Below are positions 25,490-47,694 of a stretch of DNA of 64,000 nt, piece by piece. A program made the position numbers and the translations under genes. The number at the start of each line of letters is the position of its first letter. Positions within the stretch are counted from its first letter, which is position 1. This DNA comes from an uncultured Clostridia bacterium (GTDB lineage: Bacteria > Bacillota > Clostridia > TANB77 > CAG-508). The DNA is taken from assembly GCA_944387555.1 (NCBI GenBank), contig CALXFH010000001.1:82849-146848 (forward strand). Direction: 5' to 3'. The notes under the pieces were generated by a model. The model searched no databases and was not told where the DNA came from. It saw nothing but the letters and a program-made list of their open reading frames with translations.

Positions 25490-27418
<1,929 letters not shown>

Positions 27419-37814: not shown

Positions 37815-38783
37815 ATGGAGAAAAAAATAAATACTAATATTGAAAATAATAAACGAAATGAAAAAGAAATAAATAATAAAAATAATACATATAAAGAGGA
37901 TAATAAAAAGAAATTTAAATTATTAGATCCAAAAAATGATGTTGTATTTCAAATGTTATTTCTTAAAAATAATTTAGCAAAAGGATTATTAGATAATATT
38001 TTAATAGATAAAATAATTTCTGTAAATGTTGATGTAAATAAACAGTTATTAGGAGATAGACCAGAAGATAAAATAGGAATAGTAGATTTAAGAGCAATAA
38101 TAAATAATGAAATAGAATGTGAAGTAGAAATGCAAATGTTTTATTTTAATAATTTTGTTCCGAGATTTTTAGATTATTGGTCTAAAATGTATTCAAGACA
38201 ACTAAAAAAAGGAGATAATTATGACTTATTACATAGAGTTATTTCTATTGCTATTATTAATCAAAATATTCCAGACTTAAAAGGATTACCAGCACATACT
38301 ATATGGAATATAAGAGAATCTAGGAATCATAGAAAAATATTGACAAATAACTTAGAGTTACATATAATAGAAATACAAAAGGCTAAAGAGGAATATAAAC
38401 ATAACAAGGATGATAAATTATTACAATGGATAAAGTTTCTAGAAAACCCAGAAAGCAAGGAGGTAGATAGAATAATGGTAAGTAATAAAGAAATAAAAGA
38501 AGCTAAAAAAGAATTATTTAGCTTAAGCCAAGATGAAGAAAACCAAAGAATAGCAGATTTTAGAGAAAGAGAAATTATGGATAGAAAGGATATCTACGAA
38601 ACAGGAAAGGATGAAGGTAAGGCAGAAGGAATAAAAGAAGGAAGAAAAGAAGGAATAAAAGAAGCAAGAGAAACTTTTATAATAAATTTACTTAAGATTA
38701 AAATGCCAATTGATAAAATAATAGAATTTACAAGTGCAACTAAAGAAGAAATTGAAAAAATAAAGGAAAGTAAAAATCTATAA
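37815..38783 (+). CDS. Rpn-family (YhgA-like) PD-(D/E)XK recombination-promoting nuclease / putative transposase
   Basis: N-terminal DPKNDVVFQMLF...EVEMQ pattern; C-terminal repeat-helix domain ...KEGRKEGIKEARETFIINLLKIKMPIDKIIEFT..EEIEKIKE. Confidence 0.6.
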   Translation: MEKKINTNIENNKRNEKEINNKNNTYKEDNKKKFKLLDPKNDVVFQMLFLKNNLAKGLLDNILIDKIISVNVDVNKQLLGDRPEDKIGIVDLRAIINNEIECEVEMQMFYFNNFVPRFLDYWSKMYSRQLKKGDNYDLLHRVISIAIINQNIPDLKGLPAHTIWNIRESRNHRKILTNNLELHIIEIQKAKEEYKHNKDDKLLQWIKFLENPESKEVDRIMVSNKEIKEAKKELFSLSQDEENQRIADFREREIMDRKDIYETGKDEGKAEGIKEGRKEGIKEARETFIINLLKIKMPIDKIIEFTSATKEEIEKIKESKNL

Positions 38784-39273: not shown

Positions 39274-39314
39274 GTGTCCCCAAATGCACATTTTTGAGCA
39301 AAAGGAAACGTCCC
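39274..39314 (-). repeat. GGGAC-element copy A (reverse orientation), immediately 3' of the XRE gene stop
   Basis: Reverse complement reads gggacgtttccttttgctcaaaaatgtgcatttggggacac; compare copies at 44684 and 47707. Confidence 0.7.
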
Positions 39315-39685
39315 TATTTTTTATTTTTTTCATATTCTTTGAAAAATGAATATGATGTAGTTAATATTTTATAATAATAGTCCTTCATTTCTTCAGAACT
39401 TCTATTTAATATTCTATCTATTTTTTGTGAGGTTGAATTTGTTTCTTCATTACCAAATAAAATATAGTCTGTAGATACTCCAGTAAATGCTACTATACGG
39501 CATAATGTTTTTATACTTAATGAACGTTCGCCTCTTTCTATTTGCCCTAAGAATATATCAGATATATCAACTGCTTCTGAAAATACTTCTCTACTCATTT
39601 TCATGTTTTCTCTTGCTTTTCTTATTCTTTCTCCTACTTCTAAATTATTTGGTATCTTTGTATCCATATTATTCCTCCCAAACAT
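39314..39685 (-). CDS. XRE-family helix-turn-helix transcriptional regulator, divergent from the DGR target gene
   Basis: HTH LSREVFSEAVDISDIFLGQIERGERSLSIKTLCRIVAFTGVSTDYIL. Confidence 0.75.
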   Translation of the reverse strand: MFGRNNMDTKIPNNLEVGERIRKARENMKMSREVFSEAVDISDIFLGQIERGERSLSIKTLCRIVAFTGVSTDYILFGNEETNSTSQKIDRILNRSSEEMKDYYYKILTTSYSFFKEYEKNKK

Positions 39686-39995: not shown

Positions 39996-41375
39996 ATGTA
40001 TAATTATTCTAAAAATTATAATTTTAATTCTAATAAAGATAAAATAAAAGACAAAATAAAAAAGATAAAAACAAATAATTCTGGTATTACTATTGTTGCT
40101 TTAGTTGTAACTATTATTGTTTTATTAATTTTAGCAGGAATAACAATAGGAGCAATTACTGGAGATAATGGTATTATTAATAAAGCGCAAGAAGCTAAAA
40201 ATGATACCAATTATGCTCAATGGGAAGAAAAGATTGACCAAGCTATCATAGATGCAGAAAGTAAATACAGAAATCCAACTATGATTAATGTAAAAGAAGA
40301 GTTAAGAGATAAAGGCATAATTGAAGATTATGACAAAGTAGATGACAAAACAGGAGCTATAACAACAGTAGATGGTACCATAATAGAAGGTAAGCTTGAT
40401 GATTATATAGAGTTTGGACCAGGTATGGTAGCGGATAAGAATGAAACTTATACAGATGCAAATGGAGACACAGCAACGATACCAAAAGGTTTTGAGATAT
40501 TAGAAGATGCAAGTACAGTAGATGATGGTTTAGTTATTCAAGATGAAAGTGGTAACCAATTTGTATGGATACCAGTAGAAACACCAGTAGCAAGTGCAGA
40601 AGCAGATGGAACAACAAATAAAGCAATGGCAATAAAGAATGGAAATAATTATAGAGGTTTACTTTATGACTTTACTAGTACAGGCTCAACAGTAAAAAGT
40701 GGATGTACAACGACTACAAGTAGTTATAGAGAGCCAGCTTATTTAACAGATTCAAGTTATGCGGATGGGTCTTCATATAATCAAGATGGAGATGGAAATA
40801 AAATAGTAACAGAAGATAGTCTACAACAAGAATATAATAAAATGATGGCAAGCGTTGAACAATATCATGGCTTTTATGTAGGAAGATATGAACTTGGTTT
40901 AGAAGGAACAACGCCAGTAGTAAAAAACGCAAGTACGAATTCAGGTGTTACAACAGCAGATGCAAGTAATTCAAATACTAAGATGTGGTATGGCTTATAT
41001 AGTAAGTGCAAAGAATTTGCACCAGAAGATAGTAATAAATCAGTGGTAAGTAGTATGATATGGGGAAGTCAATATGATGAAATGCTTAATTGGATGCAGG
41101 CAAATGGAGAAGATGTGTCAGCATCAGCTGATAACACTGAAACAATAAGAAATAATTCTACAAAAACAGGAAGTCAAGAAAAAGATTTTATGAAAAATGT
41201 ATATGACCTTTATGGATGTCATTATGAGTGGAAATTAGAGGCCAACATCACGAAAGAACGTGTTTATCGTGGAGGTAATTCTAGCAGTAGCAGCGCTCCT
41301 AGCAGCCGTCGCAGCACCTATTCGAGCAATGCCAGCAGTACCTATTCAGCCCGTCTCACTTTATATATAAAGTAG
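39996..41375 (+). CDS. DGR target (variable) protein. N-terminal pilin-like hydrophobic anchor, beta-rich central region, and a C-terminal FGE-sulfatase/C-type-lectin-fold-like domain ending in the VR
   Basis: N-terminus ..NNSGITIVALVVTIIVLLILAGITIGAITG; C-terminus ..DLYGCHYEWK..ERVYRGGNSSSSSAPSSRRSTYSSNASSTYSARLTLYIK; strong RBS AGAAGGAGG. Confidence 0.8.
   Translation: MYNYSKNYNFNSNKDKIKDKIKKIKTNNSGITIVALVVTIIVLLILAGITIGAITGDNGIINKAQEAKNDTNYAQWEEKIDQAIIDAESKYRNPTMINVKEELRDKGIIEDYDKVDDKTGAITTVDGTIIEGKLDDYIEFGPGMVADKNETYTDANGDTATIPKGFEILEDASTVDDGLVIQDESGNQFVWIPVETPVASAEADGTTNKAMAIKNGNNYRGLLYDFTSTGSTVKSGCTTTTSSYREPAYLTDSSYADGSSYNQDGDGNKIVTEDSLQQEYNKMMASVEQYHGFYVGRYELGLEGTTPVVKNASTNSGVTTADASNSNTKMWYGLYSKCKEFAPEDSNKSVVSSMIWGSQYDEMLNWMQANGEDVSASADNTETIRNNSTKTGSQEKDFMKNVYDLYGCHYEWKLEANITKERVYRGGNSSSSSAPSSRRSTYSSNASSTYSARLTLYIK
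41240..41360 (+). repeat. DGR variable repeat (VR) at the 3' end of the target gene
   Basis: Matches the TR at 43522..43632; over a 93-nt core, 14 of 16 mismatches correspond to adenines in the TR. Confidence 0.8.
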
Positions 41376-41489: not shown

Positions 41490-41580
41490 AGGTAGGTAGG
41501 AAATTCCCTTGCAGGGCGAAGACGCCAAAAGGGGATTTCCTACCGGACTAGTCCGGTAAGACTAGTCCTATTTTTTTGCG
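41490..41580 (+). other. GC-rich nested palindromes downstream of the VR (candidate DGR target-recognition hairpin / terminator)
   Basis: ggtaggaaattccc-[ttgcagggcgaagacgccaaaa]-ggggatttcctacc; ggactagtcc-ggtaa-gactagtcc-tattttttt; gcgaaaaaataggact. Confidence 0.5.
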
Positions 41581-41648
41581 AAAAAATAGGACTAAGAACA
41601 ACGAAAGGTTACATAAAACCTTATAAAAATAGAAAGGTGGGATTTTTT

Positions 41649-42080
41649 ATGAAATTTTTAAAAAGAATAGAAAAAATAAAGTCAGAAAATGAAGATAAAA
41701 TAGTATTAGCAAGATGTGGATTATTTGTAGTGGCAGTAGGAAATGATGCAAGAATATTAAGTAAAGAATTTGGATTAAAGAAAACTTGTATGAAAAGAGG
41801 GGTATGTAAAGTAGGAATACCTGCTAGCTATGCATTAAAATATTTAAAATTAATAGAAGATAAAGGTTATAGTTATTTATTATATGACTATGATAAAAAT
41901 ACAAAAGAAATGATAGAAAAATATAGATATATTGGTACTAATAAAGTAGAAGAAATTAGCATAGATTGTCCTTCTTGTGAAAATTATAAAGAACAAGATG
42001 TTATAGATATCTTTGAATTATTAAGAAGAAAAAAAGAAAAAAATAAAAAAGAAGTAAATGGGGAAAAAGAAAATGAATGA
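41649..42080 (+). CDS. Small protein with a MutS domain I (mismatch-binding domain)-like sequence, located between the DGR target and Avd. The ORF track uses a GTG start at 41637
   Basis: KIVLARCGLFVVAVGNDARILSKEFGL...VCKVGIPASYALKYLKLIEDKGYSYLLYD parallels MutS [25 protein letters not shown]...[29 protein letters not shown]. The Phe is conserved and the Glu is not. AAAGGTGGG lies 8 nt upstream of ATG 41649. Confidence 0.45.
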   Translation: MKFLKRIEKIKSENEDKIVLARCGLFVVAVGNDARILSKEFGLKKTCMKRGVCKVGIPASYALKYLKLIEDKGYSYLLYDYDKNTKEMIEKYRYIGTNKVEEISIDCPSCENYKEQDVIDIFELLRRKKEKNKKEVNGEKENE

Positions 42081-42468
42081 AAAAAGTAGAGAAAATAACA
42101 TAAGAGAAAATGGAAAAAATGAACTAATATTAATACCAAAATATGAAAGATATATGCAGTATATGATAGAAATAATTTTAAAAATGCCAAGAACAGAAAA
42201 ATTTAATATAGGAAATGAATTTAAAACAGTTATGTATAAATGCTTAGAAAATATACTGTATTTAAATAAAATAGAAATATCAAAAAGAATGTATTATTTA
42301 AATTTAATAGATGCAGGTTTAAATATTCAAAGAATAATGCTTAGGATAATGTTAAAAAATAAGTGGATAGATAAAAAGAAATATTTAGTATCAATGGAGT
42401 TGTTATATGAAATAGGAAAAATATTAGGAGGATTAATAAAGTTTTATGCCAAAAACAATAAGAAATAA
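42058..42468 (+). CDS. avd: Avd-like DGR accessory protein (small basic helical protein); the likely start is ATG 42073
   Basis: ~130 aa, basic, predicted all-helical; sits immediately upstream of the RT and overlaps its start. Confidence 0.55.
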   Translation: MGKKKMNEKSRENNIRENGKNELILIPKYERYMQYMIEIILKMPRTEKFNIGNEFKTVMYKCLENILYLNKIEISKRMYYLNLIDAGLNIQRIMLRIMLKNKWIDKKKYLVSMELLYEIGKILGGLIKFYAKNNKK

Positions 42469-43462: not shown

Positions 43463-43521
43463 ATTTAGAAAATATAAAAAATTATTAAGTAAAAATAATT
43501 TTAATTAGGGATAAATCAAAA

Positions 43522-43632
43522 GGCCAACAACACAATAATCGTGGAGGTAATTCTAACAATAGCAACGCTCCTAGCAATCGTAACAACAACAATCCGAACA
43601 ATACCAACAGTAACAATTCAGCCCGTCTCACT
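43522..43632 (+). repeat. DGR template repeat (TR), rich in AAC/AAT codons
   Basis: ggccaacaacacaataatcgtggaggtaattctaacaatagcaacgctcctagcaatcgtaacaacaacaatccgaacaataccaacagtaacaattcagcccgtctcact. Confidence 0.85.
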
Positions 43633-43877
43633 CTAATACGATTCTAGATTATATATTTTAAGGAATATATACAATGAAAGTATTAGTATTAAAGAGATTT
43701 ATTCCTTCCTAATATAGGTAAAAAAGTATCAGTAAAATAGGTATTAGTAAAAATACCAAGAAGTATTTTGAATATACTTATTTTACAATTAATTATTTAA
43801 TTTAAGTTGATATATTTTTATTTAATTTAATTTATTTTATTTTTTAAATACTTAAAATTAATTTAAAGAGGTAAAAA

Positions 43878-44144
43878 ATGAATATATGTTTTGTAATAGG
43901 AAAAATAATAAGTGATATACAATTTGATTTTATAATAGACGGAAAAAGTATTGGGAAAAAATTTTCAATTGTAAGATTTGAAATAGAATTGCTAGATAAA
44001 GAAAAAACAAAAGTAAGTGTAATAGCTTATGGAAAAATAGCAGAAAAATGCTTTCAAAAGTTAGTAAAAAGTGATATTGTAAGTATATATGGCGACCTGA
44101 ATTCTAATGGAAAGTTAGAAATAGAAGAAATAGATTTATTATAA
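43878..44144 (+). CDS. Mini SSB-like OB-fold protein (88 aa) lacking the acidic tail
   Basis: MNICFVIGKIISDIQF..GKKFSIVRFEIEL..VIAYGKIAEKCFQKLVKSDIVSIYGDL follows the SSB N-terminal OB-fold pattern; RBS AAAGAGG. Confidence 0.4.
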   Translation: MNICFVIGKIISDIQFDFIIDGKSIGKKFSIVRFEIELLDKEKTKVSVIAYGKIAEKCFQKLVKSDIVSIYGDLNSNGKLEIEEIDLL

Positions 44145-44363: not shown

Positions 44364-44666
44364 ATGGAGGTTTATAAAATGGAAGAAAATATAAATAAAA
44401 AAGATATGATAAAATTAATATATAAAGCACAAGAGGAGAAAATAGATAATATTATTAAAAAAGTAAATAGAGAAGTAAAGGATGAATTAAAAACAATAAA
44501 TACAGAAAAAGTAATAGCTTCATCTAATGAGCCAAATGAAACACGAGAAGTTTTTAGAAAAATAGAAGATAACTATAATATAAAAATAACAAGATATAAT
44601 GAAGAAATGTATAAAAAAGGGTTTATAGATGGTGTAAACTTTATGATGAATTGTTTAGACAAATAA
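44364..44666 (+). CDS. Hypothetical protein
   Basis: RBS AATGGAGG; normal composition; no family recognised. Confidence 0.4.
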   Translation: MEVYKMEENINKKDMIKLIYKAQEEKIDNIIKKVNREVKDELKTINTEKVIASSNEPNETREVFRKIEDNYNIKITRYNEEMYKKGFIDGVNFMMNCLDK

Positions 44667-45231: not shown

Positions 45232-47694
45232 ATGGAAGAAACACCAAAAAGAAATGACGGAAAAATAATAGAAAGAGACATCGAAAAAGAAATGAGAACA
45301 GCCTACATAGACTATGCAATGAGTGTTATTGTATCACGTGCACTTCCAGACGCAAGAGATGGTTTAAAACCAGTACATAGAAGAATATTATATGCTATGT
45401 ATGAAGATGGAATAACATCAGATAAACCATACAGAAAGAGTGCTAATACAGTAGGTTCAGTTCTAGGAAGATACCATCCACATGGAGATAGCTCTGTTTA
45501 TGATGCAATGGTAAGAATGGCACAAGACTTCTCAATGAGATACCAATTAATAGATGGACATGGAAACTTTGGTTCTGTAGACGGTGATGGAGCAGCAGCT
45601 ATGAGGTACACAGAAGCTAGAATGTCAAAAATAGCATCATATATGCTTACAGATATTGAAAAAAATACTGTAGACTTTATGCCAAACTATGATGATAGAT
45701 TACAAGAACCAACAGTATTACCAGCAAGAATACCATTGTTATTAGTAAATGGATCATCAGGTATAGCCGTAGGTATGGCGACAAACATACCACCACATAA
45801 CTTAACAGAAGTTATAAATGGAATAATAAAAGTAATAGATGAAGACAATGTGTCAGATGAAGACTTAATGAAAATAATAAAAGGACCAGATTTCCCAACA
45901 GAAGGACTAATATTAGGACGTGAAGGAATTAAAAAAGCATATACAACAGGAAGAGGAAAAATAACATTAAGAGCAGAAACAAACATTGAGGAAATGAGTG
46001 GAAATAGACAAAGAATAATAGTTTCATCATTACCATATCAAGTAAATAAAGCAAACTTAATAAAAACAATATCAGAATTATCTAAAGAAAAGAAAATAGA
46101 AGGAATCTCAGAATGTAGAGATGAATCAGATAGAAAAGAAAAAGTAAGAGTAGTAATAGAACTAAAAAGAGATACAAATGCACAAGTTGTATTAAACCAA
46201 TTATTTAAACATACACAAATGCAAACAACATTTGGTGTTATAATGCTTGCATTAGTTAATGGAGAACCAAAAATATTAACATTAAGACAAGCAATAGATG
46301 TTTATATTCAGCATAGAAAAGAAGTTATAACAAGAAGAACACAATTTGATTTAGATAAAGCATTAGCAAGAGCTCATATATTAGAAGGATTAAGAATAGC
46401 AATAGACAACATCGATGAAGTAATTCAAATAATACGTTCATCATATGATGATGCAAAAGAAAGATTAATGGAAAGATTTGGATTATCAGATGTACAAGCT
46501 CAAGCAATTCTAGATATGAGATTAAAAACACTATCAGGTTTGCAACGTGAAAAAATAGAAGAAGAATATAAACAATTAATGGAATTAATAGACCATTTAA
46601 GAGCAATACTTTCAAGTGAAAAACTACTATTTGATGTAATGAAAGAAGAATTAATCGAAGTAAGAGATAAATTTGGAGATGAAAGAAAAACAAAAATAGT
46701 AGCATCAGAAGCAGAAATAGAATTAGAAGACTTAATAAAAGAAGAAGAATGTGTAGTAGCTCTAACACATTATGGTTATATTAAGAGAATGCCAATAGAT
46801 ACATATAGAAGCCAAAGAAGAGGCGGGAAAGGTATAACAGGAATGGTAACTCGTGAAAATGATTTTGTAAAAGAAATCTTTATAGCGTCAACACATGATA
46901 CGATTCTATTCTTCTCAAATAAAGGAAAACTATATAAATTAAGAGGATATGAAATACCAGAAGCAGGAAGAACTGCAAAAGGAACAGCAATAGTTAATTT
47001 ATTAAGTTTAGACCCAGGAGAAAAAGTATCAGCAGTAATACCATTACAAAACTTTGCAGAAGGAAAATACCTACTTATGGCAACAAAGAATGGATTAATT
47101 AAGAAAACAGCATTAAAAGAATATGATACAACAAGAAGAACAGGATTACAAGGAATAACACTAAAAGATGACGATGAATTAATAGCAGTTAGATTAACAG
47201 ACGGAGAAGATAATGTTGTATTAGTTACAAGAAAAGGATTATGTATAACATTTGATGAAAAAGAAGTAAGACCAATAGGTAGAGTAGCACAAGGTGTTAT
47301 AGGAATAAGACTAGATGACGATGATGAAGTAATTGGTATGGAATCTGTAATAAATGGAGGAAAAGCAACATTACTAGCAATAACTGAAAATGGATTTGGT
47401 AAGAGAACAGAACTTGATGAATATAGAGTACAAAAAAGAGGCGGAAGAGGAGTAATCACATATAAGATTACACCAAAGACAGGAGAACTAATAGGAGTAA
47501 GAATTGCAACTGAAGATGATGAAGTAATGTTAGTTACAGATACAGGAACAATTATAAGATTAAAAGTAAAAGATATAAGCATCTTAGGAAGATCAACACA
47601 AGGAGTTACTCTAATGAGAACAAGCGATGGTGGAAAAGTAGTAGGAATGGAAATACTAACACCAGAAAAAGAAGAAATAGGAAAAATGTTATAA
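45232..47694 (+). CDS. gyrA: DNA gyrase subunit A
   Basis: Active-site region AAMRYTEARM; GyrA box; C-terminal beta-pinwheel repeats. Confidence 0.97.
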   Translation: MEETPKRNDGKIIERDIEKEMRTAYIDYAMSVIVSRALPDARDGLKPVHRRILYAMYEDGITSDKPYRKSANTVGSVLGRYHPHGDSSVYDAMVRMAQDFSMRYQLIDGHGNFGSVDGDGAAAMRYTEARMSKIASYMLTDIEKNTVDFMPNYDDRLQEPTVLPARIPLLLVNGSSGIAVGMATNIPPHNLTEVINGIIKVIDEDNVSDEDLMKIIKGPDFPTEGLILGREGIKKAYTTGRGKITLRAETNIEEMSGNRQRIIVSSLPYQVNKANLIKTISELSKEKKIEGISECRDESDRKEKVRVVIELKRDTNAQVVLNQLFKHTQMQTTFGVIMLALVNGEPKILTLRQAIDVYIQHRKEVITRRTQFDLDKALARAHILEGLRIAIDNIDEVIQIIRSSYDDAKERLMERFGLSDVQAQAILDMRLKTLSGLQREKIEEEYKQLMELIDHLRAILSSEKLLFDVMKEELIEVRDKFGDERKTKIVASEAEIELEDLIKEEECVVALTHYGYIKRMPIDTYRSQRRGGKGITGMVTRENDFVKEIFIASTHDTILFFSNKGKLYKLRGYEIPEAGRTAKGTAIVNLLSLDPGEKVSAVIPLQNFAEGKYLLMATKNGLIKKTALKEYDTTRRTGLQGITLKDDDELIAVRLTDGEDNVVLVTRKGLCITFDEKEVRPIGRVAQGVIGIRLDDDDEVIGMESVINGGKATLLAITENGFGKRTELDEYRVQKRGGRGVITYKITPKTGELIGVRIATEDDEVMLVTDTGTIIRLKVKDISILGRSTQGVTLMRTSDGGKVVGMEILTPEKEEIGKML

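Follow-up and report, generated by a model that had tools for sequence, protein, structure and literature searches.

Organisation of the cassette

The window analysed here, a stretch of 64,000 nucleotides from the genome of an uncultured Clostridia bacterium (contig CALXFH010000001.1, positions 82,849 to 146,848), contains a diversity-generating retroelement (DGR) in which a small gene between the variable target gene and avd encodes a stand-alone homologue of the domain by which MutS recognises mismatches. It adds a new member, from the Clostridia, to the known class of MSL (MutS-like) accessory genes of DGRs, where it is placed by the published class description, and its product carries the phenylalanine of the Phe-X-Glu motif of the MutS repair ATPase and lacks the glutamate.

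The features of the cassette are listed in Table 1. The template repeat (TR), downstream of the reverse transcriptase (RT) gene, is 83% identical over 98 nt to the variable repeat (VR) that the target gene carries at its 3' end, with 14 of the 17 differences at TR adenines, and these adenine differences together with the RT motifs identify the element as a genuine DGR. If an indel of about 10 nt is allowed for, the likeness of the repeats may extend further upstream, to 41240-41265 and 43512-43537 (GGCCAACA..CAC). The genes are tightly packed: an in-frame ATG of avd at 42073 overlaps the MSL stop codon (ATGAATGA), and the first 23 nt of the RT gene are shared with the end of avd. No HRDC domain was found at E <= 1 among the six open reading frames (ORFs) of the cassette, or at E <= 0.001 among the neighbouring ones.

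The MSL ORF extends from an ATG at 41649 to a TGA at 42078-42080. An alternative reading of 147 aa begins at a GTG at 41637; because this codon lies within the Shine-Dalgarno-like AAAGGTGG and the N-termini of all homologues are MKF or MRF, the ATG is the likely start. The isoelectric point (pI) is 8.9 for the whole protein and 9.6 for core residues 1-100, and the mean among the collected short proteins, nearly all of which are from the MSL family, is 8.3 +/- 1.2.

Table 1 Features of the DGR cassette and related loci (coordinates refer to the window unless a locus designation, L001 and so on, is given)
Feature	Position	Strand	Evidence or remarks
Target (variable protein) gene, 459 aa, hydrophobic pilin-like N-terminal segment	39996..41375	+	
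VR, 3' end of target gene	41266..41363	+	98-nt direct repeat of TR
Structured leader, target stop to MSL start	41491..41593	+	Fold z-score -5.96
Leader at the same position in other loci	L002, L005, L008, L010, L013, L015, L020, L021, L024, L027, L040, L046, L098, L100, L102, L001, L052		
MSL accessory protein, 143 aa	41649..42080	+	MutS_I match, fold, family alignment
MSL parts	Residues ~1-95; residues 121-141		MutS domain I fold; C-terminal helix, Lys/Glu-rich
MSL motifs	G24-x-F26, D33-A34, G56-I57-P58; C47, C53, C107, C110		Cysteines form putative Cys4 site
Four cysteines C47, C53, C107, C110	41787-41789, 41805-41807, 41967-41969, 41976-41978	+	Family alignment
avd (bAvd-like)	42058..42468	+	PF22296 E 3.5e-16; NF033474 (DivGenRetAVD) E 1.1e-19
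DGR RT, 338 aa	42446..43462	+	RVT_1 E 3.4e-18; IGNYTSQ and YMDD motifs
TR	43538..43635	+	Repeat search
RT-14 RNA (Rfam RF02921), abutting TR 3' end	43631..43786	+	106 bits (gathering score 48.1)
SSB-like/OB-fold ORF, 88 aa, last gene of cassette type	43878..44144	+	Weak matches to single-stranded DNA-binding protein (SSB)
SSB-like ORF elsewhere	L015 2733-3011; L013 7130-7372; L008 7804-8064; L010 8369-8641; L096-L103		
Island region and features	24401-47694; 37815-38783; 39314-39685 (-)		

A stand-alone MutS domain I

The MSL protein matches the Pfam family MutS_I (PF01624) with an E-value of 7.7e-8 and 33 bits, above the gathering score of 20.6, through residues 4-88, which correspond to profile positions 4-92 of 113, and MutS_I is the sole MutS domain detected in it by a Pfam scan. 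Positions 8-80 of the NCBIfam full-length MutS model align weakly to the protein (E 0.006), and a weak Pfam match to RRM_7 (E 0.16) was dismissed. Searches of PDB sequences with the single sequence or with a close-family profile gave no MutS and returned just noise (kinase, CXCR4, E > 0.1), and a broad profile of 52 family sequences reached Taq MutS at E 6.8e-5, with 'vkcGiFyiaigkdA' of the profile opposite 'FQVGDFYECFGEDA' of Taq MutS and GiFyia opposite GDFYEC. On the basis of this alignment F26 corresponds to F39 of Taq MutS and F36 of E. coli MutS, and position 28 to the site of Glu41 and Glu38, respectively.

The predicted fold agrees with this assignment. An earlier AlphaFold model from 20 close homologues, with a predicted local distance difference test (pLDDT) score of 72.8 and values below 50 at residues 102-121, was replaced by a model from 52 diverse family members with a pLDDT of 93.4 and a predicted template modelling (pTM) score of 0.78. 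When the first model was compared with PDB by Foldseek, the best 50 matches were all domain I of MutS, MSH2, MSH3 or MSH6; in the structure comparison of the 52-sequence model the score falls to 5.9 at a tRNA-splicing endonuclease, whose fold is presumably a distant relative of MutS domain I. MSL thus consists of MutS domain I standing alone, and the connector, core, clamp and ATPase domains are all missing.

The first-pass annotation, made by eye, had described a 143-147-aa ORF between the VR-bearing target gene and avd, had likened it to the MutS domain that recognises mismatches, and had noted that the Phe of F-x-E is kept and the Glu replaced by Val. This reading of the sequence was right in every detail, from the ORF coordinates and the cassette order to F26 and V28 in the profile alignment, and the profile search, structure prediction and survey of related loci that it had proposed all bore it out, showing a likeness far in excess of chance.

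In common with domain I of MutS and MSH6 (1ewq and 1fw6 from Taq, 1e3m from E. coli and 2o8b_B from human MSH6), MSL contains the G-x-F motif, with the Phe that stacks on the mismatch, and the D-A and G-I-P motifs. It differs from them in the absence of domains II-V, including the ATPase, the clamp, the dimerisation helix-turn-helix and the MutL-binding surfaces, in the occupation of the Glu site by Val (Ile, Val, Thr or Asn in the family), and in the addition of Cx5C, CxxC and a charged C-terminal helix. Small proteins consisting of MutS domain I only are also present in gut phage metagenomes, as found by Foldseek in BFVD at E 1e-4 to 5e-3: Siphoviridae sp. ctZro7 A0A8S5PPT8 (153 aa), Myoviridae sp. 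ctPuP5 (84 aa) and ctsK93 (74 aa). These proteins are viral, whereas the cassette of the window is chromosomal.

Retention of the phenylalanine and loss of the glutamate

The loss of the glutamate is not confined to the window MSL. In an alignment of 104 family sequences F26 is present in all 101 that are ungapped at this position and G24 in 98 of 100, and position 28, at which the window MSL has Val in the place of Glu38 (E. coli) or Glu41 (Taq), is occupied by Ile (38), Val (30), Thr (13) or Asn (8) in 89 of 102 ungapped sequences, Glu lying outside these four commonest residues. By a cruder motif count, Glu is present at position 28 in at most 2 of 198 proteins. Substitution of this residue in MutS itself is compatible with placement on a mismatch, to judge from the titles of PDB 1wbb, 1wbd and 1wb9, which describe E38A, E38Q and E38T MutS still on a G.T mismatch.

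A host MutS can be compared directly with an MSL on the contig of locus L026, where the 889-aa MutS, with domains I-V, retains GDFYE and the MSL has GAFFA; the two are 27% identical over 78 residues. A full-length host mutS gene adjoins an MSL-type cassette in two unrelated clusters (L026 1112-3778 and L064 7013-7567), and in L026 it lies directly after MSL-avd and the RT gene is missing. The adjacency is probably a coincidence, and an origin of MSL by duplication of the neighbouring host mutS was rejected on account of the low identity and the fact that the adjacency is not general.

Four conserved cysteines

The residues that are near-invariant in the 52-sequence alignment, in which members are 26-65% identical to the window MSL, are G24, F26, G31, A34, C47, C53, K54, P58, C107 and C110. 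The four cysteines among them form a Cx5C pair, which flanks a beta-hairpin ahead of G-I-P, and a CxxC located about 53 residues downstream. The CxxC is present in 90 of the 116 family proteins with a tail long enough to contain it, most of the exceptions being obvious chimeras, and model confidence at this motif rose from below 50 in the 20-homologue model to 75-91 in the 52-sequence model. MutS has no cysteines at these positions in the profile alignment. Together the four cysteines probably constitute a putative structural zinc site, which would fasten the C-terminal tail to the domain I hairpin.

Relation to the known MSL class

The first-pass annotation knew of no comparable accessory gene in DGRs. 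The novelty that this implied did not hold, since MSL had already been named when two new accessory genes of DGRs were identified (Wu, Gingery, Abebe et al., Nucleic Acids Res 2018, PMC5758913), and the gene class is therefore not new. In that survey MSL was reported in 16 of 372 DGRs, with a length of 112-283 aa and a pI of 7.2 +/- 1.7, always alongside avd and never with HRDC, defining Architecture D, which includes the Legionella DGR; three DGR RTs with a C-terminal MutS_I motif were also reported (PMC5758913). Msl was encountered again in Bacteroides DGRs in a 2024 preprint (bioRxiv 10.1101/2024.11.15.621889).

The window gene has the attributes of the class, with 143 aa, MutS homology, avd in the cassette and no HRDC, and like the MSL of Wu et al. 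and the Bacteroides Msl it encodes a small stand-alone MutS homologue in an avd-bearing, HRDC-free DGR. It differs from the MSL of Wu et al. in its derivation from an uncultured low-GC clostridial genome and in its pI, which is just within one standard deviation of the published mean, at the upper edge. The DGR RTs with a C-terminal MutS_I likewise tie MutS domain I to DGRs, but in them the domain is fused to the RT, and in the window it has a gene of its own, upstream of avd. Avd and HRDC proteins are, similarly, small nucleic-acid-binding accessories encoded beside the RT, with unrelated folds; in this cassette Avd is present and HRDC absent.

In the accessible text of the papers on known MSLs, neither the leader nor the SSB-like gene is mentioned, nor is the Cys4 motif or the missing Glu. 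More widely, the searchable DGR literature yielded no description of overlapping or abutting MSL-avd frames, of the leader or of the Cys4 motif, the searchable literature on MSL nothing about the lost Glu, and the searchable literature nothing about a DGR accessory gene that resembles SSB.

Conservation and decay of the cassette

An exhaustive scan of 1.84 billion representative sequences with HMMER recovered 401 clusters (50% identity) of the MSL family at E <= 1e-3, of which 128 reach E <= 1e-10. As the representatives of the best 150 of the 401 clusters are all 47-269 aa in length, the family is one of stand-alone proteins. A profile scan of reference genome contigs found a single locus, in an uncultured Clostridia metagenome-assembled genome, and no match to the cassette type was found among INPHARED phages, PLSDB plasmids or IMG/VR; the cassette type thus appears to be chromosomal.

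Synteny was assessed in 95 loci reached via MSL, forming 16 clusters at >=80% identity and derived mostly from human-gut metagenomes. Directly downstream of MSL lies avd in 72 of 84 evaluable loci, followed by the RT gene in 52 of 60, and the order target, MSL, avd, RT is kept in relatives at 31-36% identity. Of 14 related loci, 13 have the RT-14 RNA in the interval that separates the RT gene from the small SSB-like ORF. The cassette occupies differing chromosomal sites, beside cmk, gyrA, rpsL or uvrC. MSL is therefore a conserved component of a clostridial cassette type comprising target and VR, leader, MSL, avd, RT, TR, RT-14 RNA and SSB-like ORF. Among 10 loci with gene calls, 8 have an MSL stop codon that overlaps the beginning of avd, and avd in turn overlaps the RT gene; MSL is co-transcribed with avd and RT and probably also co-translated with them.

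This conservation bears on the reading that the MSL ORF is a functionless remnant, either a captured 5' fragment of mutS or a chance ORF in AT-rich DNA. The window has a G+C content of 23.6%, which makes long spurious ORFs possible, host mutS lies near the cassette in L026 and L064, and several family members are truncated or chimeric. Set against this are about 400 clusters in which G24, F26, C47 and C53 are invariant, down to about 26% pairwise identity, a ratio of nonsynonymous to synonymous substitution rates (dN/dS) of 0.26-0.47 between intact cassettes, a gene order that is fixed across many genomic sites, the mere 27% identity to the adjacent host MutS, and the gain of a Cys4 motif that is absent from MutS. 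A remnant is accordingly very improbable, and is effectively refuted by the conservation of the family.

Some cassettes have nonetheless decayed. Loci L001 and L052 retain target, leader and MSL and have lost avd, RT and TR, the MSL copy of L001 showing an internal deletion and an altered C-terminus; at both (L001 4438-4884, L052 4956-5462) a housekeeping gene, typA or metG, comes next. Elsewhere internal deletions have given rise to chimeras of MSL with Avd, with RT and with the SSB-like OB protein (MSL::Avd, MSL::RT and MSL::OB). The chimeric and decay proteins collected are P0023, P0079, P0093, P0102, P0109, P0118, P0129 and P0161, of which P0023, an MSL::Avd fusion, belongs to a cassette with an intact RT. 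Most of the chimeric ORFs look like deletion debris of decaying cassettes rather than selected fusions.

Proposed function

The main open steps of mutagenic retrohoming are how the cDNA replaces VR and how dense mismatches escape repair. Going by the literature, a mismatch-dense heteroduplex is to be expected in the course of retrohoming. When host mutS was deleted, mutagenesis of VR rose 5- to 10-fold in the Bacteroides DGR Bov, which is not among the three Bacteroides DGRs encoding Msl (bioRxiv 10.1101/2024.11.15.621889), and mutS was deleted in a DGR reconstitution in E. coli in order to preserve substitutions. Host MutS restricts the output of an element not listed with Msl to this extent; MSL is a natural candidate for a counter-measure. 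The first-pass annotation suggested that a mismatch-binding module lacking the ATPase could protect or channel the mismatched intermediate, a reasonable role that is retained here as the preferred hypothesis.

The reading preferred here, with a probability of about 40%, is that MSL binds the mismatched cDNA:VR heteroduplex without being competent for repair and shields it from host MutS. The RT-Avd complex would make adenine-mutagenised cDNA, the pairing of which with VR would give a mismatch-dense heteroduplex, and MSL would bind this distorted duplex through the retained Phe wedge (G-x-F) and the basic surface of domain I. Lacking the repair-licensing Glu, as well as the domains for ATP-driven clamp formation and MutL recruitment, MSL would make this binding a dead end. 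Mismatches would thereby be occluded from host MutS, and the mutagenised strand would last until the following round of replication rather than being repaired back to the parental VR. The close packing of MSL with avd and RT, as well as the rare MSL::Avd and MSL::RT fusions, suggests that MSL may be delivered in or beside the RT-Avd particle.

Several considerations weigh against heteroduplex binding. High-affinity mismatch binding by MutS requires a dimer and the clamp domains, and a lone domain I may bind weakly. The F26 wedge and the Cys4 site were read from sequence and profile alignments, and no binding or genetic test of any MSL was found in the searchable literature. The Bordetella DGR is independent of mutS, and about 96% of surveyed DGRs do without MSL (both PMC5758913). 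The fusions and the tight coupling to avd, moreover, fit a role in the ribonucleoprotein during cDNA synthesis equally well.

Such a role, with MSL as a subunit or cofactor of the RT-Avd-RNA particle, is possible but rather doubtful. MSL might bind the TR-RNA:cDNA hybrid or the mispaired primer end opposite template adenines, stabilising mismatched ends for extension by the RT or aiding priming. Consistent with this are the overlapping frames of MSL, avd and RT, the MSL::Avd fusion in a cassette with an intact RT, and the provision of the cassette type with an RNA of its own, RT-14, beside TR. Domain I of MutS, however, is known to bind mismatches in duplex DNA and is not known as a binder of RNA:DNA hybrids, most of the chimeric ORFs have the appearance of deletion debris, and the RT-Avd of Bordetella reportedly carries out adenine mutagenesis without an MSL-like factor. 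The constant company of avd also favours a cofactor, since MSL always occurs with it in the published survey (PMC5758913) and is directly followed by it in most of the loci collected here, as do the chimeric MSL::RT products and the RTs with C-terminal MutS_I extensions (PMC5758913).

A structured leader upstream of MSL

The interval between the target gene and MSL contains a leader in which a long hairpin is combined with tandem GC-rich palindromes and a T-run, and in which an A-run could pair back to the T-run. The repeat is a tandem 14-nt unit holding a 10-bp palindrome, with 4-nt spacers. This plan is kept in 17 of 19 representative loci with at least five different stem sequences, including GGACTAGTCC, GTGGCG/CGCCAC, GGGGTACCCC, GTGGTACCAC and GTACCAAAT/ATTTGGTAC. 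The leader has no match in Rfam. It looks like a terminator/antiterminator and may be a displaced DGR cruciform. Described DGR hairpins lie 4-34 bp from VR, and homing of BPP-1 requires a GC-rich hairpin/cruciform with a 4-nt loop downstream of VR; the leader palindromes were rejected as a canonical DGR cruciform, as they lie about 180-200 nt from the end of VR.

The leader raises the alternative that MSL recognises DNA structure, specifically the hairpin- or cruciform-forming tandem palindromes between VR and its own gene, either marking the 3' boundary for cDNA integration or controlling, by autoregulation, how far transcription reads through into the MSL-avd-RT operon. Binding to junctions and loops is within the capacity of MutS-family proteins, MSL invariably comes first among the genes past VR and the conserved leader, and the stem sequences of the 10-bp palindromes co-vary between loci around their 4-nt spacers. 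The orphan loci L001 and L052, which keep target, leader and MSL after the loss of avd and RT, and the cruciform requirement of BPP-1 point in the same direction. This alternative is nevertheless unlikely: the distance of the palindromes from VR far exceeds that of described hairpins, the palindromes and T-run are equally well explained as the intrinsic terminator of the target gene, MSL is tied to the palindromes by adjacency alone, and the MSL copy of the orphan L001 is itself decaying.

An SSB-like partner gene

The last gene of the cassette type gives weak, though consistent, signals of similarity to SSB or the OB fold, with PF00436 at E 0.006 (under the cut-off), NF005579 at E 0.009 and PDB 3koj (ycf41), an SSB-like protein with an oligonucleotide/oligosaccharide-binding (OB) fold, at E 0.09. 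Its family (MNICFVIGKIIS...) comprises 474 clusters of 80-97 aa, and about a quarter of the 120 family members listed carry a precomputed PF00436 match. The association with the DGR holds in both directions: the ORF follows the RT gene in 25 of 33 evaluable MSL loci, all 7 evaluable loci reached via the SSB-like ORF have MSL, avd and RT upstream, and all four look-ups from the longest contigs fall in cassettes of target, MutS_I, bAvd, RVT_1 and SSB-like ORF. It could correspond to one of PAG1-4, genes that Wu et al. left unnamed.

An SSB-like gene in the cassette fits a module that handles single-stranded DNA as well as heteroduplex. Combined with the binding of mismatched heteroduplex preferred above for MSL, this leads to the tentative proposal that the two proteins form a retroelement-encoded module protecting the retrohoming intermediate. 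In it, single-stranded cDNA would be covered by the SSB-like protein, and a zinc-held MutS domain I decoy, with the Phe kept and the Glu and ATPase lost, would occupy the multi-mismatch cDNA:VR heteroduplex and bar host MutS from it. If true, the module would be a dedicated anti-mismatch-repair device made from the sensor domain of the repair protein itself.

The SSB-like partner gene and the leader are apparently undescribed, and the presence of Phe without Glu, together with the Cys4 motif, gives sharp, testable predictions for the role of MSL. The compact five-gene cassette and the family of about 400 clusters make for clear predictions on F26, the cysteines, epistasis with mutS and the SSB-like partner. 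The question of what MSL does is thus directly testable, and an answer could improve DGR-based tools for directed evolution.

Target protein and genomic surroundings

The N-terminus of the target (39996-40170) consists of a Lys-rich stretch followed by GITIVALVVTIIVLLILAGITIG and resembles the hydrophobic helix of pilins and pseudopilins, minus the usual Glu at +5, which suggests that the variable protein is anchored in a surface fibre. Homologous targets at related loci give weak or faint matches to FGE-sulfatase, a domain with the C-type-lectin fold.

The DGR is located in an island of about 17 kb between gyrB (25490-27418, after recF) and gyrA (45232-47694), which also encodes TraG/HerA-like and ParA/CpaE-like ATPases. 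Genes for a PD-(D/E)XK 'transposase' (Rpn-like) and an XRE-family helix-turn-helix protein adjoin the cassette here and again in L002, L096, L100 and L102. The SSB-like ORF of the window is followed by an ORF of 100 aa (44364-44666, + strand) that is 96% identical to one in L002, and in L102 and L103 the SSB-like gene likewise has an ORF of comparable size (97 aa) after it.

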